A stretch of 64,000 bases of DNA from NCBI GenBank assembly GCA_963707395.1, contig CAVPPQ010000020.1, forward strand, positions 262,021 to 326,020. The letters run 5' to 3'. How positions within the stretch are numbered: position 1 is the stretch's first letter; each line of letters begins with the position of its first letter. The DNA comes from an uncultured Chloroflexia bacterium (GTDB lineage Bacteria > Chloroflexota > Limnocylindria > Limnocylindrales > CSP1-4). Shown one piece after another: positions 6,082 to 32,055 of the stretch. A program made the position numbers and the translations under genes. The notes below the pieces were generated by a model. That model was not told where the DNA came from and ran no database searches. It saw only the letters and a list, made by a program, of their open reading frames with translations.

Positions 6082-6463
6082 GCGGCGGCACGCGGCACCT
6101 CGGTCCCGGGGAAGGGACACGGGGAGCCACTCAGCGGTGAGCCGGGGCCGACTCGCTCGCATCGGACGTTCGAAGCCCTCAGGGAAGCGGGTCGCCCCAC
6201 GGGATCCACAACGCACGCAGGTGACGCCGCCACGGACACGTGTTTCCCCCCGCGGCGCTGCCTCCATACGGTCGTGAGCAGTCGGTGACGGTCGGTCGTC
6301 GCCGGATCGACCCAGGAGGCGCCCTCGCCATGGCATCCGCATTCACACTGCCGGGCGCCCTGCTGGCGGCCAGGATCCTGTGCACCGGAGATGCGACCCT
6401 GGAGCGGGGGGTCCGCACATCGACGCCCCGGTCGATGTGCGGCTGCGTGGCGGGCGGCCGGTG

Positions 6464-7345
6464 ATGCGCCGCCTCCGGTCCAGCGGCGACCGCCCCGTGG
6501 TGATCATCGGCAGTGGCGTGGCCGGCGTGGCCACGGCCGCATCGTTGCGATCCAGCGGCTACGGGGCCCGGGTCATCCTGGTCTCCGAGGAGTGTGTGCT
6601 GCCGTATCGGAGGTCGCTCCTTCCCACGTCCTACCTGCGCGGCGAGGTGTCACGCGAAGAACTGCTCATCCATCCTGCCGAGTGGTATCGAGAGGCCCGC
6701 GTCGACCTCCTGCTGGGCGCTCGCGCGATACGCATCGACCGGCGAGAGCGCACCCTCGAAGTCCGCGGCCATGGCGCCATCCCCTACCGCCGGCTCGTCC
6801 TTGCCACGGGCGTGCGTGAAGACATCCCGTTGGGGATCCGGGCGGCGTACGGGGTCGGGTCGATCCGAGCGGTCGACGCCCTTCGAGCAGCGGCGGAGCG
6901 TGCCCGGTCAGCGATCGTGGTCGGTGTGGGCCGGATGGCGTCCGAGGTGACGTGCTCTCTCACCATGCTCGGACTCGGCGTGACGCTGCTCGCTCCGGAA
7001 GACCTCGTGGGTCCTGTAGCTCTGGGCGCCGGCCGCTGCAAGATCGCCGTCACGACCGCTGCGGGCGTCACGCTGCGGGCGGACCTCATCGTCCGAGCCC
7101 TCCGGGGGCGGCCCGACTCGGAGCTCGCATCAGACACCGGCCTGTCATCGACCGAGGGCGGGCCGATGGATCCGGTCGGCATGACGATCGACCCGGCCAT
7201 CTTCGCCACCGGCGGGCTGCTCGGCATCACGGATGAGACCACGGCGGAGGCGCACGCGAGGTCCGTCGCCTGCGCGCTCATGGGGATGGACGTCATGCCT
7301 GCGATCGATGGGTGGCCTCCGGACCCTGCCGGCGCCACCGGCTGA
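6464..7345 (+). CDS. FAD-dependent pyridine-nucleotide oxidoreductase, ferredoxin/rubredoxin-reductase-like, short (C-terminal domain missing)
   Basis: VVIIGSGVAGVATAASL Rossmann motif; ...EECVLPYRRSLLPTSYL resembles the LPYxRPxLSK motif of ferredoxin reductases; only ~294 aa versus ~400 typical. Confidence 0.55.
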   Translation: MRRLRSSGDRPVVIIGSGVAGVATAASLRSSGYGARVILVSEECVLPYRRSLLPTSYLRGEVSREELLIHPAEWYREARVDLLLGARAIRIDRRERTLEVRGHGAIPYRRLVLATGVREDIPLGIRAAYGVGSIRAVDALRAAAERARSAIVVGVGRMASEVTCSLTMLGLGVTLLAPEDLVGPVALGAGRCKIAVTTAAGVTLRADLIVRALRGRPDSELASDTGLSSTEGGPMDPVGMTIDPAIFATGGLLGITDETTAEAHARSVACALMGMDVMPAIDGWPPDPAGATG

Positions 7346-17483: not shown

Positions 17484-17780
17484 CTACCGTCCGAAGATCC
17501 GGGTGAATGGCCGCCCGCGCGCGATCTCGATCGCTCCCACGATGCCTGCCGCGACACAGACCACCCCGAAGAAGGCGAAGAGGTCGAAGCCGGCCCCGGT
17601 GGTGCCGATCAGGAACAGCCCACCGAAGAAGATGATGGCGAAGAAGAGATAGCCGCGACTGCGGGGCACGCCCGGCTTGACCCACGTGCCGCCGATGCGG
17701 CTGAAGACGGTCTCACCGGTCGGCTCACCGTCCTCGTCCGTGAATTGAGGCGACTGGAGGTGCTCTCTGAGTGACGTCAT
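17484..17780 (-). CDS. small membrane protein (hypothetical)
   Basis: Internal Met start MTSLREHL...; two hydrophobic helices (YLFFAIIFFGGLFLIGTTGAGFDLFAFFGVVCVAAGIVGAI). Confidence 0.4.
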   Translation of the reverse strand: MTSLREHLQSPQFTDEDGEPTGETVFSRIGGTWVKPGVPRSRGYLFFAIIFFGGLFLIGTTGAGFDLFAFFGVVCVAAGIVGAIEIARGRPFTRIFGR

Positions 17781-18004
17781 CCGGGCCCTCTGCGTACGCG
17801 GTTCAGGGTAGCCGATGGCCGCGGGCCGGTGTTGCATGTCACCGAGAAGCGTGTCGAGCCCTCGGTCACGCGCCCTCGACGGTCAACCCCATCGCGCGCG
17901 TCGGCCTGGCGTCGGTCGAAGGTCAGCACCACCAACAGTGCCCTGCTCTGGGCGGAACGCCAGCGTGCGTGCGCCGTTCGAACCAGCCGGCCAGACGAGG
18001 CTGC

Positions 18005-18832
18005 CTACCCCACGTGAGCGTTCAGCGTCGCGACAGCCTGCTCCAGGCCGTCCCGGTCGGTGATGGGGCTCGACGTGGGGAAGCTGGTGGTCAGGTAGTG
18101 CTGCGCGTACGGGAAGCAGCAGGCCTCGAACGGCTCGCCCGCCAGGATCCCGTCTCCAAACGTCATGCGCTCGAGCGTGACCGCCTCCAGCGGGATGGAC
18201 AGTGCCTGCGCCACCTCCTGCGGGTCGAAGATGAGACCGAAGGGGACCGCGTCGGCGGCCTGCAGCGTGCCCCCGTAGTCGACTGAGAGGTTCCCCTCGA
18301 GCCAGAGGCGCTGGTCGAGCGGTCGCATCGTGCCCTGGTGCAGGTCGGCGACGCCTGCGATCTGGTTGCGGCCGTGCGCGCTCTGCACGTCGACGATCAG
18401 ATCGCCCGAATGACTGGTCGTGACCACGCAACGGCTCGTGCTCGTGCTCGAGAACCCCTGCCCGGGGTCGTAGCTGATGGTGTTCGACTCGTAGTCGCAG
18501 ATGATCCAGGACAGCATGCCGGTCGTCCTGTTCTCGGCGATGAGCGAGAGCTCGACGCGTGTGCCCCAGAACACCGAGGTGTGGACGTTGAACGCGCCGA
18601 TGACCCCGCAGGGCCTGGTCTCCGTGCCTTCGAAGATGGCCGTCGGCACGAGCTCGTAGCCGGGCGGCAGCAGCCCGCTGGCGGCTGCCTCGTCCCTGAT
18701 CTCGTACGCCAGGAAGAGGCTGTACGGCTCGACGATGAAACCGACGTGCTGGTCCTTGCCGCCTGCCCGACCCACGATCCACTTCTGCACGCTCACCGGC
18801 AGCCTCGTGAGCATCTCGGCTCGTCGGTGCAT
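18005..18832 (-). CDS. hypothetical protein (globular, ~275 aa)
   Basis: Protein-like part of ORF 18005..19138 starting MHRRAEMLTRLPVSVQKWIVGRAGGKDQHVGFIVEPYSLF...; the N-terminal 100 aa of the ORF are junk. Confidence 0.5.
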   Translation of the reverse strand: MHRRAEMLTRLPVSVQKWIVGRAGGKDQHVGFIVEPYSLFLAYEIRDEAAASGLLPPGYELVPTAIFEGTETRPCGVIGAFNVHTSVFWGTRVELSLIAENRTTGMLSWIICDYESNTISYDPGQGFSSTSTSRCVVTTSHSGDLIVDVQSAHGRNQIAGVADLHQGTMRPLDQRLWLEGNLSVDYGGTLQAADAVPFGLIFDPQEVAQALSIPLEAVTLERMTFGDGILAGEPFEACCFPYAQHYLTTSFPTSSPITDRDGLEQAVATLNAHVG

Positions 18833-18984
18833 CGTGGCGACGGCCTTGGGTGTCACCAGGTTCTCGGTGCGCTTGATGAAACGATGGGAGTCAGATCTGT
18901 CCACGAGACGTCCTTCCTGAGCGGTGTGATCTGCATGGCCACGATAGGGTGGCCGTGAGATAGCCGCTGGCGATACGCATGCGT

Positions 18985-19588: not shown

Positions 19589-20251
19589 CTACTTGCCTTT
19601 CTTCGTCGCGGCTTTGGTGACCTTACCGGCGAGGCTGAGGTTCCCCGCCGGCTCGGTCGAGAGGCAGATCGCGAAGGCTTGGGTCTGATAAGTTCCGCCG
19701 CTCCCGAGTTGCTTCCAGGCCCGTGCGAACCAGTTCCGCGGTCCACCCGGCTGGTTCGAGAGGAAGTGGGTCGTGTTCGCCGCACCCTGGTCGTTGCCCG
19801 TGTCGATGTCCGCCCCTCCTCCCACGAGGAGGGACCCTTCCGGGCAGTAGGCATAGGCGAACGTGACGCCATCGGCCTGGGGTGCCGACTTCGGACCTGA
19901 CACCCTTGTCACCTTGACGCCCGTGATGCCCTCGTTGTCAACCCCGTCCGCGAAGCCAGCGGGCTTGTTGGGGATAGCGTTCCAGTCGGCAGGGCCAGCG
20001 GGCCCCTGGGGACCCTGGGCGCCCGCCGGACCCTTGGCATTCCAAGCGATGAGCTTCTCGCCCTTGGGACAGGTGCTCACCTTGGGGTAGTTGATGAGCC
20101 GCACGGTCCCGGTGTTCTTGGCGAGGCACGCACGGTAGGTGCCAGTTCCGTTGGGGATGGCGGCATACACCGTGCCCACCCCCAGGGCGAGGACGATGAC
20201 GACCGCGACAAGGAGCGATCCGAGACCGAGGCTGGACCTGGGTGCCGACAT
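19589..20251 (-). CDS. secreted/anchored collagen-like (Gly-X-Y) repeat protein, paralog 1
   Basis: Signal/anchor MSAPRSSLGLGSLLVAVVIVLALGVG, short GPAGAQGPQGPAGP collagen-like tract, conserved PAGFADGVDNEGITG motif, 2-Cys C-terminal domain, Lys-rich tail KAATKKGK. Strong RBS GGGAGAGGGAG upstream. Confidence 0.8.
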   Translation of the reverse strand: MSAPRSSLGLGSLLVAVVIVLALGVGTVYAAIPNGTGTYRACLAKNTGTVRLINYPKVSTCPKGEKLIAWNAKGPAGAQGPQGPAGPADWNAIPNKPAGFADGVDNEGITGVKVTRVSGPKSAPQADGVTFAYAYCPEGSLLVGGGADIDTGNDQGAANTTHFLSNQPGGPRNWFARAWKQLGSGGTYQTQAFAICLSTEPAGNLSLAGKVTKAATKKGK

Positions 20252-20993
20252 GGGAGATCTCCCTCTCCCCCCGTGGGGTCGTCACCCGCGGCCATCGACG
20301 CCGCTCAGTGCGACCGTGCTGGCGCGGGATGATGAGGCCCGCGGGGCACGGTGTCTAGGTCTGGGCACCCGAGGTGGTTCTCGGCCCGCGTGCGTCGGTC
20401 TGGCCCGTGCCGCAGGCTGATGGCGAAGCGGCTCACGAGCAGCCTTCTCGTGGGCGCCGCGCTCGATGAGGCCGCTGTCCCCGGGGTAGTGCGGGGTGGC
20501 ACTACCTGGCCGGCGTCATCGCCCCTTGACGACATCGCCAGGCAGCCCCTGGGCGCCCCAGGCGCCCCGTGTCGGCCTTTCAGGGCCGGGCGTCGCGTGG
20601 TTGGCTAACCTGGCGTGCAGGTGCCGCCAGGAGCCGCGAGTCTGGCTCGCTGAGCCGATGGCAGGTCACCCGCGCCACGCTGGGCTTGCCATCAAAGCCG
20701 ATCTGTATGTCCACCTGGGTGAGCCGCTGCGCCAAGCCCCGAAGGCCACCCCATTCCTCAGCGTGGATGCGCGGCATGGAGTGGCGCTAAGCGGCGCTGA
20801 GCGGCCCGAGATCGCTGCGGAGATTGCTGCGCAGCCTCCACCACACGCTCACCAGCGTCCTCGGCGGCGCATCATGAGGACTGTCTGGACGCCACCCTGC
20901 GCAGGCGCCATCATCCCGCAGAAGCACGGTCGCACCGGAGCGGTGACGTGGCCGCCGGCGGACGATGCCAAAGGGGGAGAAGGAGTCCTCCTC

Positions 20994-21704
20994 ATGCAGG
21001 CACCACGCTTGAGCATCGGGCTCGGCTCGTTCCTCGTGGCCCTGGCGCTCGTCGTCGCGGTCGGCATCGGCTCGGCTATCGCGGTCATCCCCAACCAGGG
21101 CACCTACTACGCCTGCCTGACCAAGTCCAGCGGGGCCGTCAAGGTCATCAACTACCCCAAGGTGCAGTGCGCCACGGGCACCCGCCTCATCAAGTGGAAC
21201 ACCAAAGGCCCGGCCGGACTGCAGGGCCCACAGGGAGTCGAGGGTCCCAAGGGTGACCAGGGACCCAAGGGAGACCAGGGGCCCGCCGGTCCGGCCGACT
21301 GGAACGCCATCTCCAACAGACCCGCAGGCTTCGCCGACGGCGTGGATGACCAGGGCGTCACCGGACTGACCATCACCCGGGTACAGGGGCCCTACACGCA
21401 GGTCTACGCGAACGCGTCCGGCACGGCATGGGGACAAGCTCACGTCGACTGTCCGGCCGGGTCGCGTGTCGTGGGTGGCGGCTACTGGTCACCCACGAAT
21501 GCGTTCGCCGTCAACTCTTCGACGGCAACGGACGCAGACACGTGGACCGTCTTCGCCACCCTCCTCGGCAAGACGGGCGACGGGTGGGTCTCCGCCATCA
21601 TGAGAGCTGACGTCCTCTGCCTGAGGGTGGAGCCAGGCGGGGCGTTGACGGTCGCCGCCAAGACCAAGCACCCGAAGGGCGCGAACAAGGTACGTCGTCG
21701 GTAG
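20994..21704 (+). CDS. secreted/anchored collagen-like (Gly-X-Y) repeat protein, paralog 2
   Basis: MQAPRLSIGLGSFLVALALVVAVGIGS..., YYACLTKSSGAVKVINYPKVQC, GPAGLQGPQGVEGPKGDQGPKGDQGPAGP, PAGFADGVDDQGVTG, Cys-containing C-terminal domain, basic tail; RBS AAGGGGGAGAAGGA. Divergently oriented to paralog 1. Confidence 0.8.
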   Translation: MQAPRLSIGLGSFLVALALVVAVGIGSAIAVIPNQGTYYACLTKSSGAVKVINYPKVQCATGTRLIKWNTKGPAGLQGPQGVEGPKGDQGPKGDQGPAGPADWNAISNRPAGFADGVDDQGVTGLTITRVQGPYTQVYANASGTAWGQAHVDCPAGSRVVGGGYWSPTNAFAVNSSTATDADTWTVFATLLGKTGDGWVSAIMRADVLCLRVEPGGALTVAAKTKHPKGANKVRRR

Positions 21705-22095
21705 GAGGGCCCAGGGACCCCTGAGTCAGGCCCGCCCGTGTACCGCCCGGTGTCGGTGGCGAACCAGCGAGCCGCCCATTGGCTGGGCTGGCTGGTTGGC
21801 TACGAAGTGGCGGCCAGCGTCCAGACGGGACGAGGCCCGCCGACGACAGCGGCCCGCCCCGCCCCCGCGGGACGGGCCGGACTTCGTCGCACAGGGGGGC
21901 CGTGCGCCGCAGGCGCTGGACGATGGCCGCTCCTGGCCGCGAGCAATCGCCCTTGCGCGGAGTCGCGCGGAGGACATGCTGTCTCCGTTGGCGCCCGCCC
22001 CTCCGACGGCAAGGACGCGGCCATGACGGTGGCGTTGGCGATCTCGGTCGTGGTGAGGCGGACGGTCACCCGGGGTCTCGAGCCAAGGGGCGAGC

Positions 22096-22443
22096 TTAGC
22101 CAGAGTCCCAGCCCTCCAGCAGCCAGAACACGAGCCGATGGCCGGTCTCGGTCGGTTCGACGACGATCGATTCGATGACGGCTCGGGCCTCGTCCACGAG
22201 CGCCGGGTCGGTGTAAACGTATGAGTCCAGCACGATGGCGACCCTCGACCCTTCGACGTCGAGGAGCCACATCTCCGTGCTGCCCATCCGTGCCGGACGG
22301 TCGAACGGACCGTCTGCCCCCCATCCGCGGTTCACCCCATCGGTCCCGATGTCCAGGACATCGGAGAACGGTGTACCCGCGTAGAACGTGAGGTCGACCT
22401 CGGCACAACAGCCGCCCTCGTAACGTGTGGGGATCTTGTGCAT
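22096..22443 (-). CDS. hypothetical protein
   Basis: C-terminal 115 aa of ORF 22096..23073 (MHKIPTRYEGGCCAEVDLTFYAGTPFSDVLDIG...) has protein-like composition; the rest of the ORF is junk. Confidence 0.35.
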   Translation of the reverse strand: MHKIPTRYEGGCCAEVDLTFYAGTPFSDVLDIGTDGVNRGWGADGPFDRPARMGSTEMWLLDVEGSRVAIVLDSYVYTDPALVDEARAVIESIVVEPTETGHRLVFWLLEGWDSG

Positions 22444-22638
22444 CCAGTTGGTGCGGCTCCCGAAGGCGGACCTGCGCCTGTTCGCGTACCGTCCGCAACC
22501 TCCTCGTGCCCGACAAGCAGGACGAGTCGTGAGCGCCCGTCCCGTCTTCCGGAAACGGGACTCTGTCGCCGATGCGGCTCGGCGCTGTCGTGACATCTGG
22601 CCCTCACGGCGGTACAGGGTGCTTTCCACAATCTCGTC

Positions 22639-23037
22639 ATGCAGATCGTCGTCGGGGTGTTCATGGTCGTGATGGGAATCGGGATCGCTGGCGTCTGGAC
22701 GGTCGACATCGTCCGGAATCCATCGATCGACCGGACCCGAGGGCTCCTCCACGCGCGCGACAGCGCTGGAAGCGTGATGGTCCCTCACTGGATCGCCGAG
22801 TACGCCACGGCTCTCCTGTGCCTGGTCGGTGGACTGGGACTCGTGCTCGGCTGGACGTCCACGCCGTGGTCGTGGCTCGTTCCGATCGCGCTCGGGGCAC
22901 TGAGCTACACCTCGCTCAACAGCCTCAGCTGGGTGCTGGCCGACCGTTCGCGTCTGGCCTACGGTGTCCCGATGGCGATCGGCCTGATCGGGGCGCTGGT
23001 CGCGATCTTGCTGCTGCTCGCTGGTTCGCTCATCTGA
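22639..23037 (+). CDS. integral membrane protein (4 TM, hypothetical)
   Basis: 132 aa, MQIVVGVFMVVMGIGIAGVWTV..., hydrophobic helices separated by short loops. Confidence 0.5.
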   Translation: MQIVVGVFMVVMGIGIAGVWTVDIVRNPSIDRTRGLLHARDSAGSVMVPHWIAEYATALLCLVGGLGLVLGWTSTPWSWLVPIALGALSYTSLNSLSWVLADRSRLAYGVPMAIGLIGALVAILLLLAGSLI

Positions 23038-23085
23038 GCGTGCTTCCACGGTTGGCGCGAGGGCGCCGGGCACCGCGTCGTCGGG

Positions 23086-23330
23086 CCCCGAACGTCACCG
23101 ACGTCTGGTCGGTCAAGAAGGTGAACCCGCGGGCGATGGTCCACCTGACCGAGAAGTCCGCGGATCTCACGCGCCTCGCGATCGAGTACAGCTCACTGCC
23201 CGGTGAGGTGGTGCTCGACCTGTTCGGTGGCTCGGGGTCCGCGCTGATCGCCGCGGAGCAGACCGGCCGACGTGCCGGCCTCATGGAGATCGACCCGCTC
23301 TGCTGCGCGATATCTAGCCTCGCGTGGCTG
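23086..23330 (+). pseudogene. DNA (N6-adenine/N4-cytosine) methyltransferase fragment A (phage/plasmid type)
   Basis: ...MVHLTEKSADLTRLAIEYSSLPGEVVLDLFGGSGSALIAAEQTGRRAGLMEIDPLCC carries the HPTQKP-like and DPFxGSGTT SAM-binding motifs. The N-terminal DPPY region is absent and the frame degenerates at ~23320. Confidence 0.55.
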
Positions 23331-23339
23331 CCGACAGGC

Positions 23340-23807
23340 TCACCCCGACGCGGTCGCAGCCTCCTCCGCTGGCCGGGGCTGAGGCCCCAGCAGGAAGGCC
23401 TCCTCGGCGGCCGGGTCGAACATGTACGTGCGCTCAGCGACGACCTTACCGCGGCGCACCTCGGACACATCGATGCCACGCCCGACACGGGTCACGCCAG
23501 CCGCGTTCGTCTCGGTCACCTCGAACTCGCTGATGACGGTGTTCGTCAGCGTGAGCGCCCAAGGCTTGTCGAGAGCGGCATGGAGGATGCGGTAGTGGTA
23601 CACGGGGACCGCGTCGAACCACGCCTGCATCATCGCGCGCCAGGCAGCCTTGCCCTCGACCCGGCCACCGATGGGCGGGGGCCCCGGCTGCTCGAAGACC
23701 ACGTCGTCCGCGAGATACCGCTCGAAGTAGTCGAGGTCCCCGCGGTTGAGGGCATCCCAGCCGCGTCCCAGGCCGAGCTTGAGGATCAACGCTCCGATCA
23801 TCGTCAT
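23340..23807 (-). CDS. SnoaL-like / NTF2-like protein
   Basis: MTMIGALILKLGLGRGWDALNRGDLDYFERYLADDVVFEQPG... is a typical SnoaL_2-type sequence; it lies between the two methylase fragments. Confidence 0.55.
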   Translation of the reverse strand: MTMIGALILKLGLGRGWDALNRGDLDYFERYLADDVVFEQPGPPPIGGRVEGKAAWRAMMQAWFDAVPVYHYRILHAALDKPWALTLTNTVISEFEVTETNAAGVTRVGRGIDVSEVRRGKVVAERTYMFDPAAEEAFLLGPQPRPAEEAATASG

Positions 23808-23917
23808 CCCTCCTCCGTCACGGCCACGATGATCCCCGCTCGTGGGCGTGGGAAGGGCCATCGGTCGCGTGGTCCCTCTCGTCGCGGGACGCGCCACGGG
23901 GTGCGACCCACTCGGCA

Positions 23918-24343
23918 TCACTTGCCCTTGCGCACGTGCGCCTTCTTGGGCCCGTGGTCGCTGTTCTTCGCGGCGATCACGAGCCCCGCGGGCTCGGCGC
24001 GCGGGCAGGTGACCCAAGCGTAGAGTCCGACCTCTCCGACAGCACCTTCCCTGACGCCGGCCACGGGCCACGTGTTGCTGTCAAGGGGCAGTGAGGCCCA
24101 GACAGTCGCGTCGGCCATGCCTGTGGCAGTGCCCGACAGGTTGTACCCACCCCCCACGGCGAAGAAACCCGAGGGACAGTCAGCAGTGTCTTCCGCCTCG
24201 ATCAACTGAGTGAGGACCGCGGGTGTCTCGGACACAACCGTCTTGAACTTGACCGCCGTCATCCCCTCGTTGTCCACGTTGTCGGCGAAGTCAGCCGGCT
24301 TGTTGGCGATGTCGCCCCAGACGGGGCGGCGTGGCTTCGGCAT
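23918..24343 (-). CDS. collagen-like protein family, paralog 3 (C-terminal domain only; lacks signal peptide and Gly-X-Y tract)
   Basis: MPKPRRPVWGDIANKPADFADNVDNEGMTAVKF...VGGGYNLSG...KKAHVRKGK aligns with the PAGFADGVDxxGxTG motif and C-terminal domain of paralogs 1 and 2. Confidence 0.6.
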   Translation of the reverse strand: MPKPRRPVWGDIANKPADFADNVDNEGMTAVKFKTVVSETPAVLTQLIEAEDTADCPSGFFAVGGGYNLSGTATGMADATVWASLPLDSNTWPVAGVREGAVGEVGLYAWVTCPRAEPAGLVIAAKNSDHGPKKAHVRKGK

Positions 24344-24446
24344 GGAGCTGGACTCGCTGTACTGCGACACGATCATCGAGCGGTTCGAGCGGTTCACCGG
24401 CACGAAGGCCGAGCGCGTCCCGGCGCCCGCCGCGGCGGCAGCCTGA
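24342..24446 (+). pseudogene. DNA methyltransferase C-terminal tail fragment B
   Basis: MELDSLYCDTIIERFERFTGTKAERV... corresponds to the ...EIDPxYCDxxIxRWExFTG... C-terminal end of phage methylases. Its stop overlaps the start of the terminase small subunit (TGATG). Confidence 0.4.
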
Positions 24447-24883
24447 TGGGCCGCCGCGGACCAGCCCCCACACCGACCGGGGTGAAGCTCCACCAGGGCG
24501 AGACACGACCCTCGCGGATCAACCGCCTCGAGCCCCTCCCCCGCCGTGCCGCACCCCAGATGCCACGCGGCATGGACCGCGACGCGCAGAAGGTGTGGCG
24601 GCGGGTGGTCCGAGAGATGCGCGGCTCCGACGTCATCCTCGCCGCGGACGCCGACGTGCTGCGCTGCTATGTCGAGGCGGTCGCCCGCTACGCGCAGGCG
24701 GCGGAGCTGTACGCGAAGTCCTCGCCGCTGATGCGCCGCGACGGCGAACTCGTGAGAGCTCTTCGAAGGCACCGGCTCGGCCTGACGGGCCAGAGGCCGA
24801 CCTCTGGCACGGGCACGCAGGCTGGACGGCCCTGTGACCTCTCATCGCTCGATGACACACTTACTGGTGAGATATCACCCTGA
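24446..24883 (+). CDS. phage terminase small subunit, P27 family
   Basis: MGRRGPAPTPTGVKLHQGETRPSRINRLEPLP...AQKVWRRVVREM...LRCYVEAVARYAQAAELYAKSSPL matches the P27-family pattern (RGPKPTPTxLKxLxG...W..L...L..YC.A...Y). Confidence 0.75.
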   Translation: MGRRGPAPTPTGVKLHQGETRPSRINRLEPLPRRAAPQMPRGMDRDAQKVWRRVVREMRGSDVILAADADVLRCYVEAVARYAQAAELYAKSSPLMRRDGELVRALRRHRLGLTGQRPTSGTGTQAGRPCDLSSLDDTLTGEISP

Positions 24884-24895
24884 CGGAGGACCCGC

Positions 24896-25408
24896 GTGGA
24901 CCACGCTCCCGCCCGCATCGGTGCCGTGCGCCCCAAGCACCCGGCGCAGCCGGTGTACCTGCTGGACGTCCGCGCGGTCCGCGGCGAGCGGACGCGCGCT
25001 GACGGCGCTCTCTGGGACGGCGTCCTCAACGCCACCCCGGACGACACGAATGACGCGCCCTCGCCCATCGAGGCGCTCATGGCCGCGCTGGCCGGATGCC
25101 TCGTGCGCAACCTGCGGTCGATGGCGGATGGACGTCGTATCACCCTCGAGCGTGCCGACCTCCACATCGCCGCGACCCGCTCGGACGACCCGCCGGTCGT
25201 GACCTCGCTCATCGTGGACCTCGACGTCGTCGCGGACGCCGAGCCGGAACGCATCCATCGGATGGTCGAGCAGGCGCTCCGCTACGGGACCATCACGCGG
25301 ACGATCGCCCGGGCCTGCCCGCTCGTCATCAACCTGTCGATCGGCGGAGTGCCCACCGCACTCGATGTCGAGGCCATCCTGATACTTACCCCGGAGGAGG
25401 GACGATGA
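24896..25408 (+). CDS. OsmC/Ohr-family protein (peroxiredoxin-like)
   Basis: PSPIEALMAALAGCLVRNLRS... and ...VEQALRYGTITRTIARACPLVINL show the two conserved Cys regions of OsmC/Ohr. The stop overlaps the ACR3 start (ATGA). Confidence 0.75.
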   Translation: MDHAPARIGAVRPKHPAQPVYLLDVRAVRGERTRADGALWDGVLNATPDDTNDAPSPIEALMAALAGCLVRNLRSMADGRRITLERADLHIAATRSDDPPVVTSLIVDLDVVADAEPERIHRMVEQALRYGTITRTIARACPLVINLSIGGVPTALDVEAILILTPEEGR

Positions 25409-26517
25409 CCGCCAGCCGCCTGCTCGAGAAGCTCGAGGACTTCCGCTTGCTGCCGATCTTCGTCATCGTCAGCATGGCCATCGGCATCGCCATCGGCAAG
25501 GCGCTCTCGATCTCGGACTTCGAGCTGACCCCGCCCATCGATGCCATCAAGTCGATCGCGGCTGGCACGTTCGAGCTCTCAGTCCCGAGCGCCCTCAGCC
25601 TCGGGGTGCCCATCGGGCTCTTCCTGATGATGTACCCGGCCATGACCAACGTGCGCCTCGGCGAGGTCGGGTCGGCCTTCCGCTCCCCCCGGCAATTGGG
25701 CGTGGTCCTCCTCTTCAACTACCTCGTCGCACCCTTCCTCATGCTGCTGCTGGCGAACCTCTTCGTGAGCGACCCCGAGCTGCACACGGGCCTCGTGCTC
25801 TACGGCCTGGCCCCCTGTATCGCGATGGTCATCGTCTTCACGTACCTCGCCAAGGGCAACGTGCCCATGGCCCTCGTCTTCGTGGCCATCAACTCGGTGG
25901 CGCAGATGCTGCTCATCCCGGTCTATGCGCGCCTGCTCATCGGGAACGTCGACTTCGACGTCCTCGTGGTCGGCGAGAGCGTCCTCCTCTACCTCGGCTT
26001 GCCCTTGGTCGCGGGGGTGCTGACCCGGATGCTCGTCGTGCGGCGGGGTGGAGAGGCGGCCATGGAGCGGCTCAAGCCAGGTCTCAACGCGCTCTCGATC
26101 CTGGGGCTCCTGTTCACGCTCATCGTCATGTTCTCCCTCAAGGGCGACCTCATCCTCGAGCGGCCGGGCATCGTGGTCGAGATGGCCATCCCCATGACCA
26201 TCTTCTTCGCGGCCATGTTCTTCGTGGTCCTCTTCATCGGCTCGCGCCTGCACTTTTCCTACGAGGACGGCGTGGCGGTGGCCTTCAACACGACGGGGCG
26301 CGACTTCGAGATCGCCATCGCCATCGCCATCACCGCCTTCAGCCCGACCGTCGCCCTCGCCACCGTCGTGGGGCCGCTCATCGAGGTCCCGATCATGCTG
26401 TTCCTCGTGTGGGCTGCGATGCGTCTGCGGCCGCGCCTCTTCCCCGGCGCCGCGGGTGGCGCGGTCCGCGGTGAGCGGGATGCGCCCATCGCGAGCCCGG
26501 AGGGCGCCACGACATGA
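25405..26517 (+). CDS. acr3: ACR3-family arsenite efflux transporter
   Basis: MTASRLLEKLEDFRLLPIFVIVSMAIGIAIGK...LFLMMYPAMTNVRL...PCIAMVIVFTYLAKGN, ~370 aa, 10 TM; RBS GGAGGAGGGACG. Confidence 0.85.
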   Translation: MTASRLLEKLEDFRLLPIFVIVSMAIGIAIGKALSISDFELTPPIDAIKSIAAGTFELSVPSALSLGVPIGLFLMMYPAMTNVRLGEVGSAFRSPRQLGVVLLFNYLVAPFLMLLLANLFVSDPELHTGLVLYGLAPCIAMVIVFTYLAKGNVPMALVFVAINSVAQMLLIPVYARLLIGNVDFDVLVVGESVLLYLGLPLVAGVLTRMLVVRRGGEAAMERLKPGLNALSILGLLFTLIVMFSLKGDLILERPGIVVEMAIPMTIFFAAMFFVVLFIGSRLHFSYEDGVAVAFNTTGRDFEIAIAIAITAFSPTVALATVVGPLIEVPIMLFLVWAAMRLRPRLFPGAAGGAVRGERDAPIASPEGATT

Positions 26518-26852
26518 TCGACGAGCGCTCGACCCTGCCACTCGTGCCCGAGCTGCGCTTCGACCTGGAGCGGCCGGACGTACGCGACGCCGTGCGCCTC
26601 GGCGCCCTCGTCGGCGACCCCGTCCGGGCCGGCATCCTGGCCATCCTGCGTGACGGCCCCCATTGCGTCTGCGAGATGGCCGCCGCCCTCGGTGAGCGTC
26701 AGAACAACGTGAGCAACCACCTCGCCAAGCTGCGCGAGGCCGGCCTCGTCCGGGCCAGCCGTCACGGTGCCGATGCCCGCTGGGTCTATTACGAGCGGGA
26801 CGAGACTGCCATCGAGGTCGCCGCACAGGCCATGGCGGGGATCCTGCGATGA
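26514..26852 (+). CDS. arsR: ArsR/SmtB-family metalloregulator
   Basis: ...LGALVGDPVRAGILAILRDGPHCVCEMAAALGERQNNVSNHLAKLREAGLV gives an HTH plus a CVC metal(loid)-binding motif. Start overlaps the ACR3 stop. Confidence 0.85.
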   Translation: MIDERSTLPLVPELRFDLERPDVRDAVRLGALVGDPVRAGILAILRDGPHCVCEMAAALGERQNNVSNHLAKLREAGLVRASRHGADARWVYYERDETAIEVAAQAMAGILR

Positions 26853-27886
26853 CGACGGTCGTCGCGCATCGAGCGCACCTGCCGTTCTGGGTGGTGGCTG
26901 CCGGCGGCGTGGCGGCCTGGCTCGTGGCCTGGGTCCTCCTGGCCCCTGCCGTGGACTGGCTGACGACGGACGTGCTGGGGCTGGACACGAGCGAGGGCTT
27001 CGGAGCGTCGCTGGCCTTCTTCCTCTTCGACCTGCCCAAGGTGCTCTTGCTCCTCGTCGGGGTGGTCACGCTGGTGAGCTTCCTGCGCTCGTTCGTGTCA
27101 CCCGAGCGCGTGCGGCGCACGCTGGCGGGCCGCAACGTCGTCGTGGGCGCCGCGGCGGCGGCCGGCTTCGGGGTCATCACTCCCTTCTGCTCCTGTTCCG
27201 CGGTGCCGCTCTTCATCGGCTTCGTCGAGGCCGGGGTCCCACTGGGGGTCACGTTCGCCTTCCTCATCTCGGCACCGATGGTCAATGAGGTCGCGCTCGT
27301 GCTCCTCTGGGGTCTCTTCGGTCCGGGCATCGCGGTGGCCTACCTGGTCGCTGGCCTGCTCGTCGCCATCGGGGCCGGGCTGGTGGTCGGACGTCTCCGC
27401 CTGGAGCGCTTCGTGGAGCCCTACGTCTACGAGGTCCGCGCAGGTGCCGCCATCGAGTTCCGACCCACGATGGAGCAGCGCGTGCGCGACGCCTGGGATT
27501 CGACGCGCCAGTTGGTGCGGCGGATCGCTCCCTGGGTCGTCATCGGCATCGCGTTGGGATCGCTCATCCATGGCTATGCGCCGACCGACCTCGTGGCCTC
27601 CATCGGCGGCCGCGACAATCCGCTCGCGGTGCCGCTCGTGGTCATGCTGGGCGTGCCGCTCTACGCCAACGCGGCGGGCACCATCCCCATCGTCGAGGCG
27701 CTCCTGGGCAAGGGCGTGCCCATCGGCACGGTGCTCGCCTTCATGATGGCCGTCACGGCCCTCTCGCTGCCCGAGCTGCTCATCCTGCGGCGGGTCATGC
27801 GCCGGGAGCTCATCGCCACGTTCGTCATCGTGGTCGCGGGCGGCATCCTCGCCGTCGGCTACCTGTTCAACATCTTCGCCACCTGA
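26849..27886 (+). CDS. DUF318/ArsP-like permease (TPFCSCS motif)
   Basis: 345 aa polytopic membrane protein with ...GFGVITPFCSCSAVPLFIGFVEAGVPLG...; the TPFCSCS motif is characteristic of ArsP-type organoarsenical permeases and their partners of small thioredoxin-like proteins. Confidence 0.75.
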   Translation: MTTVVAHRAHLPFWVVAAGGVAAWLVAWVLLAPAVDWLTTDVLGLDTSEGFGASLAFFLFDLPKVLLLLVGVVTLVSFLRSFVSPERVRRTLAGRNVVVGAAAAAGFGVITPFCSCSAVPLFIGFVEAGVPLGVTFAFLISAPMVNEVALVLLWGLFGPGIAVAYLVAGLLVAIGAGLVVGRLRLERFVEPYVYEVRAGAAIEFRPTMEQRVRDAWDSTRQLVRRIAPWVVIGIALGSLIHGYAPTDLVASIGGRDNPLAVPLVVMLGVPLYANAAGTIPIVEALLGKGVPIGTVLAFMMAVTALSLPELLILRRVMRRELIATFVIVVAGGILAVGYLFNIFAT

Positions 27887-27897
27887 AGGGGGAACAC

Positions 27898-28155
27898 ATG
27901 GTCAGTATCGAGATCCTCGGTCACGGCTGCGATAACTGCCGACGCCTGGAGCAGAACGCCCGCGACGCGGCGGCCATGGCCGGCGTCGAGGCCGACATCG
28001 TCAAGGTTGCCGACGACCGCGAGATCGCCGCCCGGGGCGTCCTGCGCACCCCCGGTCTCGTCATCGACGGGAAGGTCATGAGCGCCGGCCGCGTGCCATC
28101 GGCCGGGGACATCGCGGAGTGGCTGAGCCAGACGGGTGTGCCACGCCCCGCGTAG
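27898..28155 (+). CDS. small thioredoxin-fold protein (redox-active disulfide protein, CxxC)
   Basis: MVSIEILGHGCDNCRRLEQNARDAA... is the 85-aa family usually encoded next to DUF318 permeases. Confidence 0.75.
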   Translation: MVSIEILGHGCDNCRRLEQNARDAAAMAGVEADIVKVADDREIAARGVLRTPGLVIDGKVMSAGRVPSAGDIAEWLSQTGVPRPA

Positions 28156-28731
28156 TGGTTCCGGTCGGCTTCCCGCACACCCGTACGGTCCCTCGCTTGA
28201 CGCCCGCCTGACCGCCCCGTAGACCGGAGGGCGTGCACGCACGTCTTCCCCTCCTCCTCGCGCGTCGGGCCGGGTCGGTGCCCCCAGCCCGGCCGACGCG
28301 CTAAGCCTCGTGAGCCCCGTCGAGCTCGTCCTCTTCGGGGCCCTGTGCTACGTCTTCGGCCTGGTCAGTGGTGCTGTCCTCATCCCCTGGCTCGTGGACC
28401 GGGGCCAACCCGCCCGTGCTCGTGCCGTTGCTCCTCACCGCTGCTGGCCTGCTCTCGGTCGACCTGCCTGGCGTGCGCCACTGTGGCCCGACAGCCACGC
28501 CATCAACGGAGACTGGAGCCGGCGGAGGTCGTCGCGTACCTGCGCTCGCTGCCGTCGCTCTGGACCGATGCAGGACCCGAAGGACGCCAGGCGCTGGCCG
28601 TGGCGCTGTTCGCCAAGCTCGAAGTGGAGGAGTACCAGAAGATGACCTACGAACTCACATCCGATGCCGTGGAACTCGGTCTCAGCGCGGCACTACCCGC
28701 GGTGCTGGAGACCGGTGGTCAGATCGGTGAG

Positions 28732-29584: not shown

Positions 29585-30766
29585 TCAGTCGGCCGTGCCG
29601 GCCCCTGCATGGTCCGCGACCCCGGCGGCCGCGAACCGGGGATTGGTCTCCGCCGACCGGACGCGAGGCACGACGGCAGCCACCACGACCGAGGCCACGG
29701 CGAAGAGTCCCATGGCCATCGAGATGCCAGCCGAGTCCGAGGTCAGGCCGATGAGCGGCGGCCCGACCATGAAGGTCAGGGTCAGGAACGTGAAGGCTGC
29801 CGATAGCGACGGCCCGGCGGGCCTGATGCGCGCGGCCGCGCCGAAGAGCTGCGGGATGGCGTTGGCGACACCGATCCCAGCGACCACCATGCCCACGAGG
29901 GCCACGACCGCGCTGCCCACCACCAGGAAGGCCGTGATGGCCGCCGCGGTCAGGAGCATGCCCCACTGGATGAGGCGGATGGAGCCGACGCGGTCCTTGA
30001 CCCAGTCGCCGCCGACGCGCCCGAGGAAGAGCCCCAGCGAAAGCGCCGCGTAGGCGAAGGCCGCCACCTCGCCGGAGGTGCCGATGCCCTGCCGCAGGTA
30101 GATGCCGCCCCAGTCGGTCAGCCCGCCCTCCACGAAGGCGAGCAGGATGATGAGCAGGCAGATGGGCAGCACCGCCCGCGCAGGGAGGTGGATGCCGCTG
30201 GCGCCCTCCGTGCGCAGGGAGCCCTGCCCCAACGACCGTCCCGCGACCAGCACCACCAGCCACAGCAGCAGGCTGGCCAGCAGCGCCTCGACGACCACGT
30301 CCACGCCCAGGGACACGGCCACGCCCACGCCCACCGCGCCGATGATGCCGCCCAACGACCAGCCCGCGTGGAGGCCGGAGAAGATGGACGTGCCGCCCTG
30401 CGTCTCAAGGGCCACGCCGTGCGCGTTCATGGAGACGTCCATGGCCGTGTTGAACGCGCCGAAGACGATCATGACGCCGGCCAGGACCAGGGGGTCGGGG
30501 GCCAGCATGGGCAGCACCGTGAGCAGCGGGAAGACCAGCCCGGCCGCCATGACCATGCGGCGGCTGGAAACGCGCACGAGCAGCTGGCCGGTGACCTGCT
30601 GGGAGATGAGAGCGCCGAGCGCGGCGCAGAAGAGGACCAGGCCCATCTCCGTCGCGGTGGCCCCAAGGTCCGTCTTGATGCCCGGGATGGCAGCCACCCA
30701 GGTGCCCACCACGGCGCCGTTGACGACGAAGACGAGGAAGGTGGCGAGGCGCGGCGACATCGTCAT
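29585..30766 (-). CDS. MFS transporter (12 TM)
   Basis: 393 aa; MSPRLATFLVFVVNGAVVGTWVAAIPGIKTDLGATATEMGLVLF...; paralog of the next gene. Confidence 0.85.
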   Translation of the reverse strand: MTMSPRLATFLVFVVNGAVVGTWVAAIPGIKTDLGATATEMGLVLFCAALGALISQQVTGQLLVRVSSRRMVMAAGLVFPLLTVLPMLAPDPLVLAGVMIVFGAFNTAMDVSMNAHGVALETQGGTSIFSGLHAGWSLGGIIGAVGVGVAVSLGVDVVVEALLASLLLWLVVLVAGRSLGQGSLRTEGASGIHLPARAVLPICLLIILLAFVEGGLTDWGGIYLRQGIGTSGEVAAFAYAALSLGLFLGRVGGDWVKDRVGSIRLIQWGMLLTAAAITAFLVVGSAVVALVGMVVAGIGVANAIPQLFGAAARIRPAGPSLSAAFTFLTLTFMVGPPLIGLTSDSAGISMAMGLFAVASVVVAAVVPRVRSAETNPRFAAAGVADHAGAGTAD

Positions 30767-30775
30767 CGCGGGCCC

Positions 30776-31936
30776 CTAGACCAACGGCTCCGTGGCCACG
30801 GGCGGGGCGAAGCGCGCGTTGGTCTCGATGGAGGGCACGCGTCCGACCCCGACGGCGATGAGCAGGACGGCCACGACCGGGAGCCACATCGCGACCCGGA
30901 TGCCGACCGCATCCGAGACGACGCCCATGATGGCCGGCTCGACCATGAAGGTCAGCGTGGAGAAGGCGAAGACGGCCGAGAGCGAGGGGCCCACGGGTCT
31001 GATGCGCCCGGCCGCGCCATACATCTGCGGGTAATTGTTGGCCAGGCCGATGCCGGTGATGGTCATGCCGATGAGGGCCAGGTAGGGGTTGCCGACGACG
31101 AGGAACGTGGTCATGGCGACGGCCGCCACGAGCGTGCCGGCCTGCATGAGGCGCACCGACCCGACGCGGTCCTTGAGCGCGTCGCCCGTCGAACGGCCCA
31201 ACAGCAGGCCCAGGGAGTACGCGGCGAAGGCGAAGGCCGCCAGCTGCGCGCTCGCGCCCAGGCCCTGCCGCAGGTAGACGCCGCCCCAATCGCCCATGCC
31301 GCCCGCGGCGAAGGCCACGGGGATGATGAGGAGGGCGAGAGGCAGTGCTCGCCGCGAGGGCAGGTGGATGCCGCTGGCGCCCTCCGTGCGCCGCGAACCG
31401 GTGCCGATGCGCCGGATGACGAGCGCGACCACGAGCCAGAGGATCGCACCGATCACGACAGCCTCCAGGGCGCCGTCGACCCCGAAGCTGGTGGCCAGGG
31501 CCACGGCCATGGCGCCGCCGAAGGCACCCAGCGACCAGCCCGCGTGCAGGGTGGAGACGATCGAGCGTCCATCCTTGGTCTCGATGGCCACGCCGTGCGC
31601 GTTCATGGAGAGATCCATGGTGGCGTTGACGTAGCCGAAGGCGAACATGACGGCCGCCAGGATGAGGGGCTCCGGAGCCAGTCGGAAGAGGGGCACCATG
31701 AGGGGAAAGAGCAGCGCGCCCACCATGGCGATGCGCCGGCTGGAGTAGCGCACCAGGAGCTGTCCCGTCACCTGCTGGCCGATGAGCGACCCCAGGGCCG
31801 CGACGAGCAGCACGAGGCCGAGCTCCGTGGCGGACATGCCCAGCCGGGCCTGCACGCCGGGGATGGATGACACCCAGGTGCCCAGCACGACGCCGTTCAC
31901 GAAGAAGATGACGAGGGTGGCGAGCCGCGGGGTCAT
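30776..31936 (-). CDS. MFS transporter (12 TM), tandem paralog
   Basis: MTPRLATLVIFFVNGVVLGTWVSSIPGVQARLGMSATELGLVLL... is about 55-60% identical to the preceding MFS gene. Confidence 0.85.
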   Translation of the reverse strand: MTPRLATLVIFFVNGVVLGTWVSSIPGVQARLGMSATELGLVLLVAALGSLIGQQVTGQLLVRYSSRRIAMVGALLFPLMVPLFRLAPEPLILAAVMFAFGYVNATMDLSMNAHGVAIETKDGRSIVSTLHAGWSLGAFGGAMAVALATSFGVDGALEAVVIGAILWLVVALVIRRIGTGSRRTEGASGIHLPSRRALPLALLIIPVAFAAGGMGDWGGVYLRQGLGASAQLAAFAFAAYSLGLLLGRSTGDALKDRVGSVRLMQAGTLVAAVAMTTFLVVGNPYLALIGMTITGIGLANNYPQMYGAAGRIRPVGPSLSAVFAFSTLTFMVEPAIMGVVSDAVGIRVAMWLPVVAVLLIAVGVGRVPSIETNARFAPPVATEPLV

Positions 31937-32055
31937 GGACGGTTCCGGGTCGCGGTCAGGGGGCGGTACGACGCCGCGGGCCACGCGCGCCTGCCGCTGG
32001 CCTGCGCCCGACAGCCGCTCGTCTCCGGCTCGGCGTCACGGCCGGCCATCCGGTA

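Follow-up and report, generated by a model that had tools for sequence, protein, structure and literature searches.

Small secreted collagen-like proteins from an uncultured Chloroflexota bacterium with a head predicted to be a single beta-prism module

A stretch of 64,000 nucleotides from an uncultured Chloroflexia bacterium (GenBank assembly GCA_963707395.1, contig CAVPPQ010000020.1, positions 262,021 to 326,020), hereafter the window and numbered from its first letter, contains three related genes, here called W1, W2 and W3. The evidence gathered below supports that W1 and W2 belong to a genuine, uncharacterised family of small secreted collagen-like proteins, in which a conserved stalk and a near-invariant neck carry a C-terminal head. 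According to a structural model, this head is a single six-stranded unit of the double-layered beta-prism that is known from resistin, APCbeta and the C-terminal domain of PCSK9. The reading that we favour, and that we hold to be reasonably probable, is that both are three-chain (homotrimeric) surface- or ligand-binding proteins of an undescribed type, where each chain would contribute one prism module on a collagen stalk.

W1 (19589-20251, minus strand, 220 residues) and W2 (20994-21704, plus strand, 236 residues) are intact paralogs with one common architecture, as established by alignment and motif mapping. A hydrophobic N-terminus of 30 residues is followed by the N-domain, some 42 residues long and with an invariant pair of Cys, an uninterrupted tract of Gly-X-Y (GXY) repeats, the neck, a domain of about 100 residues with another two invariant Cys (the head) and a Lys/Arg tail. 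For W1, all on the minus strand, these parts correspond to a signal peptide (20162-20251), the two-Cys N-domain (20033-20161), a GXY tract of five triplets (19988-20032), the neck WNAIPNKPAGFADGVDNEGIT (19922-19984), the head module (19625-19921) and a Lys-rich tail (19592-19624). In W2, on the plus strand, they map to 20994-21083 (signal peptide), 21084-21206 (N-domain), 21207-21296 (GXY tract, ten triplets), 21300-21362 (neck), 21363-21659 (head module) and 21660-21701 (Lys/Arg tail). W3 (23918-24343, minus strand) is a 141-residue open reading frame (ORF) and a 5′-truncated copy, with homology limited to 23921-24319, that keeps the neck, the head and a basic tail (23921-23968). The necks of W1 and W2 follow the consensus W-N-A-I-x-N-[KR]-P-A-G-F-A-D-G-V-D-x-x-G-[IV]-T, and each head module has a single invariant Cys pair (C136 and C196 in W1). 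A hidden Markov model (HMM) of the module, run on the six-frame translation of the window, detects exactly these three copies and no others.

An original prediction, made from the letters of this DNA, had already listed the three ORFs with coordinates and strands that are confirmed here, together with the common architecture of W1 and W2 (signal peptide, pre-collagen block, GXY tract, neck, Cys-bearing C-terminal domain and basic tail), which the alignment bears out, and the reduction of the third copy to linker and C-terminal domain, which agrees with the content of W3. Some of its sizes required correction: the tracts have five and ten triplets instead of four to eight, and the C-terminal domain, given as about 110-130 residues, spans about 100 residues plus a basic tail of 11-16. 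The divergent arrangement of W1 and W2 stands, and the intergenic region given as 740 bp measures 742 bp. The resemblance among the copies is no low-complexity artefact, since it persists once the GXY tract and the neck are removed: head-only BLASTP gives E 2e-7 for W1 and W2, 2e-6 for W1 and W3, and 6e-9 for W2 and W3. The N-terminal parts of W1 and W2 match each other at E 5e-23. Public contigs also carry a protein, P0001, that is identical to W1.

Both intact proteins are most likely exported through the Sec pathway, as judged from their hydrophobic N-termini, the small residues at positions -3 and -1 of the putative cleavage site (VYA|AIPN in W1 and AIA|VIPN in W2) ahead of an invariant IPN, and the conserved Cys pair in each domain. 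Conservation across the family starts exactly at the predicted cleavage point, and removal of the signal peptide probably takes place directly ahead of the invariant (A/V)IPN.

W1 and W2 are part of a much larger set of proteins. A search with W1 retrieved 171 proteins at E <= 1e-3, all of them unnamed or ‘hypothetical’, among which Collagen is the sole Pfam domain. What had been described as a three-member family is a small part of a larger one, in which at least 171 clusters have a common N-module. The earlier remark that these proteins match no nameable family holds, since they are unnamed in the sources and no Pfam or NCBIfam model covers W1-W3. A scan of species-representative genomes places the relatives chiefly in uncultured Chloroflexia and in Chloroflexota metagenome-assembled genomes (MAGs). 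The general plan runs from a signal peptide and a conserved two-Cys N-domain through a GXY tract and a neck of the form W-x-x-I-x-N-K-P-A-G-F-A-D-G-V-D to an exchangeable head, which is closed by a Lys/Arg tail. Collagen-bearing members have from 3 to 17 triplets, in which X is Pro in 63% of the cases and Y is mostly Gln or Ala. In one subgroup the neck is absent and the collagen is joined straight to the head, a class A head as defined below, and some members hold two to four neck repeats.

Sequence reading and clustering of the C-terminal parts revealed that the constant N-module is joined to exchangeable heads, with a class A (53 members, including W1-W3) and a class B (43 members). Class B heads have no match among Protein Data Bank (PDB) sequences, and the idea that they are diverged class A heads was ruled out by profile comparison (hhalign probability of 13.7%). 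Within the class A alignment, the mean pairwise identity is 67% for the N-domain, 80% for the neck and 34% for the head. Several members look like chimeras: P0003 bears a head 80% identical to that of W1 on an unrelated, collagen-free stalk of the NADTVDxxxA type, and P0012, P0019 and P0025 join an N-module 82-85% identical to that of W1 to other C-termini, the head of P0025 being of class B. These combinations indicate head exchange at the neck, and we propose that the family diversifies by head swapping at this point and by tandem duplication. A similar basic tail, ..PASVKKAMKKRGR or ..IAPAALKKALKKV.., ends both head classes and both types of stalk. It often reads ..PA[SA][LV]KKA[LM]KK.., and the proteins with three head modules described below lack it, ending right after their last Cys. 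As for the neck itself, the protein P0164 (837 residues) contains 12 tandem neck motifs (W..I.G[IV]PAGFADG.D) alternating with a TE.DPTV..SVKDG unit, followed by a Peptidase_S74 chaperone domain. The so-called linker would therefore be a fibre-building repeat, for which none of the Pfam models searched accounts, and the neck of the small proteins is probably one such fibre repeat.

A first view of the head comes from an AlphaFold2 monomer prediction for W1, for which 37 family sequences were aligned. In this model, residues 111-200 form six long strands with a predicted local distance difference test (pLDDT) score of about 90, and the N-domain appears as a small three-stranded sheet (pLDDT 82-87). 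Confidence is low for the collagen tract (pLDDT below 50) and the neck, in line with segments whose folding requires an oligomer. Structure comparison of the head model returned the PCSK9 C-terminal domain (score 7.9), Resistin-like beta (6.3), the APCbeta domain of Toxoplasma gondii PLP1 (6.3), Resistin (6.1) and the tip of the R1 pyocin fibre (5.7), and there was no C1q, TNF or BclA chain among these matches, the leading ones all being one and the same uncommon structure. Membership in the jelly-roll group (BclA or C1q/TNF-like), one of the folds suggested by the original prediction, does not fit the head, and no phage-fibre knob, the alternative, was recognisable in it; what the model shows is a PCSK9/resistin/APCbeta prism module. 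The proposal of a stalked, trimeric head was of the right kind, in the form of a single prism module that would trimerise on a collagen stalk. The frame of the head is conserved (CPxG, GGG, a Trp and the second Cys), and variation and indels concentrate in three loops.

The fold assignment connects with background from the eukaryotic proteins. In structure, the resistin homotrimer is a homologue of the three PCSK9 modules M1-M3 (PMC9113161). APCbeta consists of three repeats that form a beta-prism, with membrane-binding loops at one end of it and a basic-patch tail behind, and it has been called apicomplexan-specific, with a fold said to resemble only the PCSK9 domain (PMC6294395). When 1.84 billion representative proteins were searched with a profile of neck and class A head, 10,787 of them matched at E <= 1e-3 and 2,307 at E <= 1e-10. 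A local HMM served to recount the modules in those 144 of the 150 best superfamily matches that were absent from the results of the W1 search: 114 contain three modules, 24 a single one, five have five or six, and one (P0164) has none. Single-module proteins nearly all carry either a collagen tract or a stalk of NADxVDGxHA and neck repeats, and the exceptions are truncated gene calls that start within the stalk or neck, plus W3 itself. Three-module proteins are secreted or lipoproteins, with Big_7, N_BRCA1_IG, CARDB and SBBP as partner domains, and in the secreted multi-domain relatives the three modules sit at the C-terminal end. No subtilase fusion, sought as a hint to the origin of PCSK9, appeared among ten long three-module proteins.

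The single and triple forms are related in sequence. The class A head profile aligns with the three-module profile (hhalign 99.2%, E 3e-19), and one three-module protein, P0154, is modelled with a pLDDT of 97 and a predicted template modelling score of 0.90. Against the APCbeta sequence of TgPLP1, the three-module profile in turn reaches E 2e-5, and the CPxG..GG motifs of all the repeats fall in register. The W1-type profile alone reaches only E 0.75 against APCbeta, below significance, so that the sequence link between W1 and APCbeta is transitive and runs via the three-module profile. None of the Pfam models searched covers the module. A recent Pfam entry of unknown function, PF27479 ‘YjdH’, gives a weak precomputed hit on many three-module relatives, is also recorded on P0129, where the Pfam models searched found nothing, and has no record on the W1 cluster or its listed relatives. 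A full-family profile run against PDB sequences retrieved only collagen peptides and a collagen-bearing hyaluronidase, and literature searches on Chloroflexi collagen-like proteins, on the resistin-like fold or domain and on the function of YjdH found nothing relevant.

A homotrimer is the simplest reading of these data, because the prism needs three modules, each chain supplies one, and collagen forms only as a three-chain helix. The pathway of assembly would start with export and cleavage of the signal peptide just before (A/V)IPN. The GXY tract, with Pro at X and Gln or Ala at Y, and perhaps the small two-Cys beta domain would then gather three chains, and the neck, as one unit of the repeat that also builds long fibre-like proteins, would help to align them and prolong the stalk. 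The six-stranded modules, one per chain, would close three-fold into a double-layered beta-prism, so that the binding end would be made of the prism, with its conserved frame and variable loops, and the three Lys/Arg tails. By analogy with APCbeta and its basic tail, the variable loops and Lys/Arg tails probably bind an anionic surface, which could be a membrane, a cell-wall polymer or a glycan, and the producing cell would retain the protein by its conserved N-terminal part.

Several points weigh against this reading. The five triplets of W1 would be too short for a stable triple helix on their own, and each module has one Cys pair, as against three disulfides in PCSK9 modules and four Cys in the APCbeta repeat. 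None of the three proteins hits a Pfam prism family at E <= 1, the Resistin and PCSK9 models being unmatched. The signal peptide may instead stay as a membrane anchor, and the protein could equally be attached to the cell by its basic tail. A broader extension of the homotrimer model, which we offer as tentative and rather doubtful, is that the prism is an ancient and very large family of bacterial extracellular modules of which the eukaryotic examples are true homologs, used either as three tandem modules or as one module trimerised by a collagen or fibre stalk. The proteins of the window would then be polymorphic ‘mini-collectins’ and, through their basic tails and exchangeable heads, would recognise other cells by the membrane or by surface polymers, in adhesion, kin recognition or defence.

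Among known systems, resistin and the resistin-like molecules (RELMs) use the prism as a homotrimer, as proposed here for W1 and W2, and they differ in their coiled-coil instead of collagen stalk, their disulfide-rich head, their role as eukaryotic hormones and the lack of any Pfam-level sequence match with W1-W3. C1q, adiponectin, the collectins and the BclA protein of Bacillus share the logic of a secreted short collagen helix with a binding trimeric globular head. BclA is not known to have a signal peptide, and its GXY tracts are much longer. The C-terminal domain of PCSK9 (also V or Cys-His-rich domain) differs in having three modules in one chain, fused to a subtilase, and its three disulfides per module (PMC9113161) contrast with the one Cys pair of W1-W3 on a collagen-stalk single module. 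APCbeta of TgPLP1 is fused to a MACPF pore-forming domain and has four Cys per repeat, and its basic-patch tail is reminiscent of the Lys/Arg tails of W1-W3 (PMC6294395). The bacterial Scl1/Scl2 proteins and Legionella Lcl are likewise extracellular, with GXY tracts flanked by non-collagen domains and a role in adhesion (PMC11162425 for Lcl). The NCBIfam models of Scl and Lcl score the window copies at 19-26 bits, against cut-offs of 325-500, with a match confined to the GXY tract. The C-termini of W1-W3 are Lys/Arg tails with neither an LPXTG motif nor a hydrophobic segment, and their heads are unlike those of Scl or Lcl. The Pfam Collagen model (PF01391) finds W2 at E 6.9e-5, with 23 bits against a gathering cut-off of 27.2, and leaves W1 unmatched; W3 has no tract. 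The family is a variant of the bacterial collagen-like surface protein, and no paper describing it was found in the literature searched.

These proteins bring a new type of head, not linked to collagen stalks before, and a head-swapping architecture to the bacterial collagen-like proteins. The relation between resistin and PCSK9, one module versus three, is replayed inside one bacterial superfamily, which offers a natural test of single-module homotrimerisation on a collagen stalk. Moreover, two eukaryotic domains of medical interest, the PCSK9 C-terminal domain and the membrane-binding APCbeta of Toxoplasma and Plasmodium perforins, become linked to a bacterial superfamily with over 10,000 representative proteins. 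Finally, very short collagen segments that would be naturally trimerised may be of interest to protein engineers.

Three other explanations of the family deserve consideration. The genes could be cargo of phages or mobile elements and not part of the biology of the cell, whether as tail-fibre or receptor-binding genes in decay or as surface proteins of the prophage ‘moron’ type (for example, for superinfection exclusion). W3 adjoins methylase and P27-type small-terminase fragments, and a second, independent family locus also lies beside a terminase-like gene: in the public locus L019, an array of six family genes is directly followed by a gene at 6136-6690 (plus strand) for a 184-residue protein that matches the small terminase phrog_1206 at E 2e-5, with otherwise no phage genes around. 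In L017, a fragment recognised by eye as the C-terminal part of a serine recombinase stands next to two family copies, in L018 a tyrosine integrase lies about 6 kb from the family copy, and the 12-fold neck repeat of P0164 ends in the Peptidase_S74 chaperone typical of fibre and tailspike proteins. On the other hand, signal peptides are unexpected on virion fibres, and none of the ten loci with gene tables has a virion structural gene beside a family copy. No relative was found among the 2.9 million contigs of IMG/VR, a Foldseek search of BFVD gave nothing at E < 1e-3 (best E 2e-3), and PHROG matches fall within the GXY tract alone, none being seen for W3 or P0003, both without collagen. The window DNA is 85% identical to parts of one of the Chloroflexota MAGs with relatives, from which its source is very probably a soil bacterium of this phylum with high GC content. 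In L017, an 8.4-kb block is syntenic with the window at this same identity, with genes for a phosphoenolpyruvate carboxylase, a short-chain dehydrogenase (adh_short), a phosphoribosyltransferase and two transporters of the major facilitator superfamily (MFS); its two tandem family genes adjoin this block and keep the chromosomal position of the window copies. Tandem arrays are frequent in the family: L019 and L020 each have six paralogs in a row, whose heads follow the order A, B, B, B, B, A and of which the last has no neck. L021, L022 and L023 are ordinary chromosomal neighbourhoods. The possible phage derivation raised by the original prediction receives little support from these data, as the signal peptides, chromosomal synteny, tandem arrays, absence from the viral collections and lack of any non-collagen phage match all weaken it, and we consider a phage or mobile-element origin quite unlikely.

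The proteins could also be purely structural components of the envelope, such as a hair-like nap, a sheath or a wall layer without specific ligand, comparable to the BclA filaments of the Bacillus exosporium. Small secreted proteins with collagen stalks and many paralogs would suit such a role, a purine-rich Shine-Dalgarno (SD) sequence and a conserved promoter-like block suggest high expression, and in Thermomicrobium, a genus of the Chloroflexota, the wall is rich in protein with a high content of Gly, Pro, Ala and Glu. However, the heads are the most variable part of the proteins and fall into at least two unrelated classes, so that recognition fits better than packing. The stalks are also very short (3-17 triplets), no known anchoring motif is present in the proteins, and copies are lost or truncated between 99%-identical strains, from which individual copies seem dispensable. 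A role limited to structure is thus unlikely in our estimation. The last alternative is a head-switching system, in which W3, as a silent cassette, would recombine at the neck with W1 or with the inverted W2 and thereby change the expressed head. W3 does retain exactly the neck, head and tail and is inverted relative to W2, and the neck is both the most conserved segment and the place where chimeras break throughout the family. Yet the aligned neck DNA of the three copies has no long exact repeat (the longest identical run, by eye, is of about 14 nt), by which a shufflon-type site-specific crossover at the neck was rejected. Furthermore, no recombinase gene occurs among the ORFs examined at about 17.5-25.4 kb, the W3 segment is absent, not inverted, in both sister strains, and the 5′ end of W3 is a junction with an unrelated methylase fragment. 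Head switching within the window is therefore very improbable, and the homotrimeric binding protein stays as the preferred reading.

The expression signals of the family show conservation of their own. About 100 nt upstream of nearly every paralog are conserved as DNA, even across genomes, and the block is also present at the family genes of L019 (five genes), L020, L017, L022 and L004. It contains a promoter-like CT(G/A)GAC(G/A)C and a CATCAT about 15-17 nt apart, then a leader with a GGTCG...CGACC stem, and it closes with a hairpin of G-run, SD and CTCCC that reaches the ATG. The block of W1 (20252-20358, minus strand) has the promoter-like CTAGACACC at 20358-20350 and, after a spacer of about 14 nt, CTCATCATCC at 20336-20327, and its leader forms the GGTCG...CGACC stem before the SD GGGGGGAGAGGGAG at 20272-20259. 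In W2, the block (20885-20993, plus strand) carries the promoter-like CTGGACGCC (20885-20893) and CCATCATCC (20908-20916), the same leader and the SD GGGGGAGAAGGAG (20973-20985). Both SD sequences are long and purine-rich, in agreement with the strong ribosome-binding sites that had been noted for copies 1 and 2. The block may act as a shared promoter or in translational control. The leader stems are conserved, with covariation in 1 of 16 pairs; with essentially no covariation, an RNA element is not established, and Rfam gave only chance-level hits on the 19-25 kb region.

W3 differs from its two neighbours in lacking a signal peptide, N-domain, collagen tract and any part of the upstream block of the family. 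Its homology begins at the Trp of the neck (24319). Farther upstream, its codons are antisense to the 3′ fragment of a DNA methylase, which adjoins W3 in head-to-head orientation, and the ATG at 24343 is fortuitous. Its nearest full-length relatives are P0022 and P0010, with 57-59% identity over the head. This copy is most likely a dead pseudogene fragment, the remnant of such a gene in a strain-variable region. The methylase 3′ fragment (about 24316-24446, plus strand) is continued by ORF 24446-24883 (plus strand), the 5′ half of a gene for a small terminase of the P27 family (PF05119, phrog_83), and a second methylase fragment lies at 23070-23339, the two N6/N4-methylase fragments and the half terminase gene being the phage-like debris of the window. 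The surroundings were compared with two public contigs, L001 and L002, from strains about 99% identical to the window. The strain-specific segment with W3 (23881-24784, 0.9 kb), a feature of the context and not of the protein family, is absent from both. In L002, genes for IS256-type and IS110-type transposases take its place. In L001 the absent stretch is longer (23881-28623) and includes, besides W3 and the methylase and terminase fragments, the genes for OsmC, an SBF-like transporter, an ArsR-type helix-turn-helix protein and an ArsP permease; part of W2 is deleted there as well. The earlier description of a cluster among insertion-sequence and phage debris holds for the methylase and P27 terminase fragments, and not for the insertion sequences, which lie in the sister strain and outside this window.

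Some minor observations concern the flanking genes. The ORFs at 18005-18904 and 17484-17837 (both on the minus strand), 22096-22440 (minus strand) and 22639-23037 (plus strand) have no Pfam or PHROG match, and the last of them, of 132 residues, looks by eye like a small membrane protein. Farther downstream, two adjacent MFS transporter genes (about 29620-31940) share about 73% DNA identity with each other, which suggests a tandem duplication, and the same pair is also found in L001 and L017.

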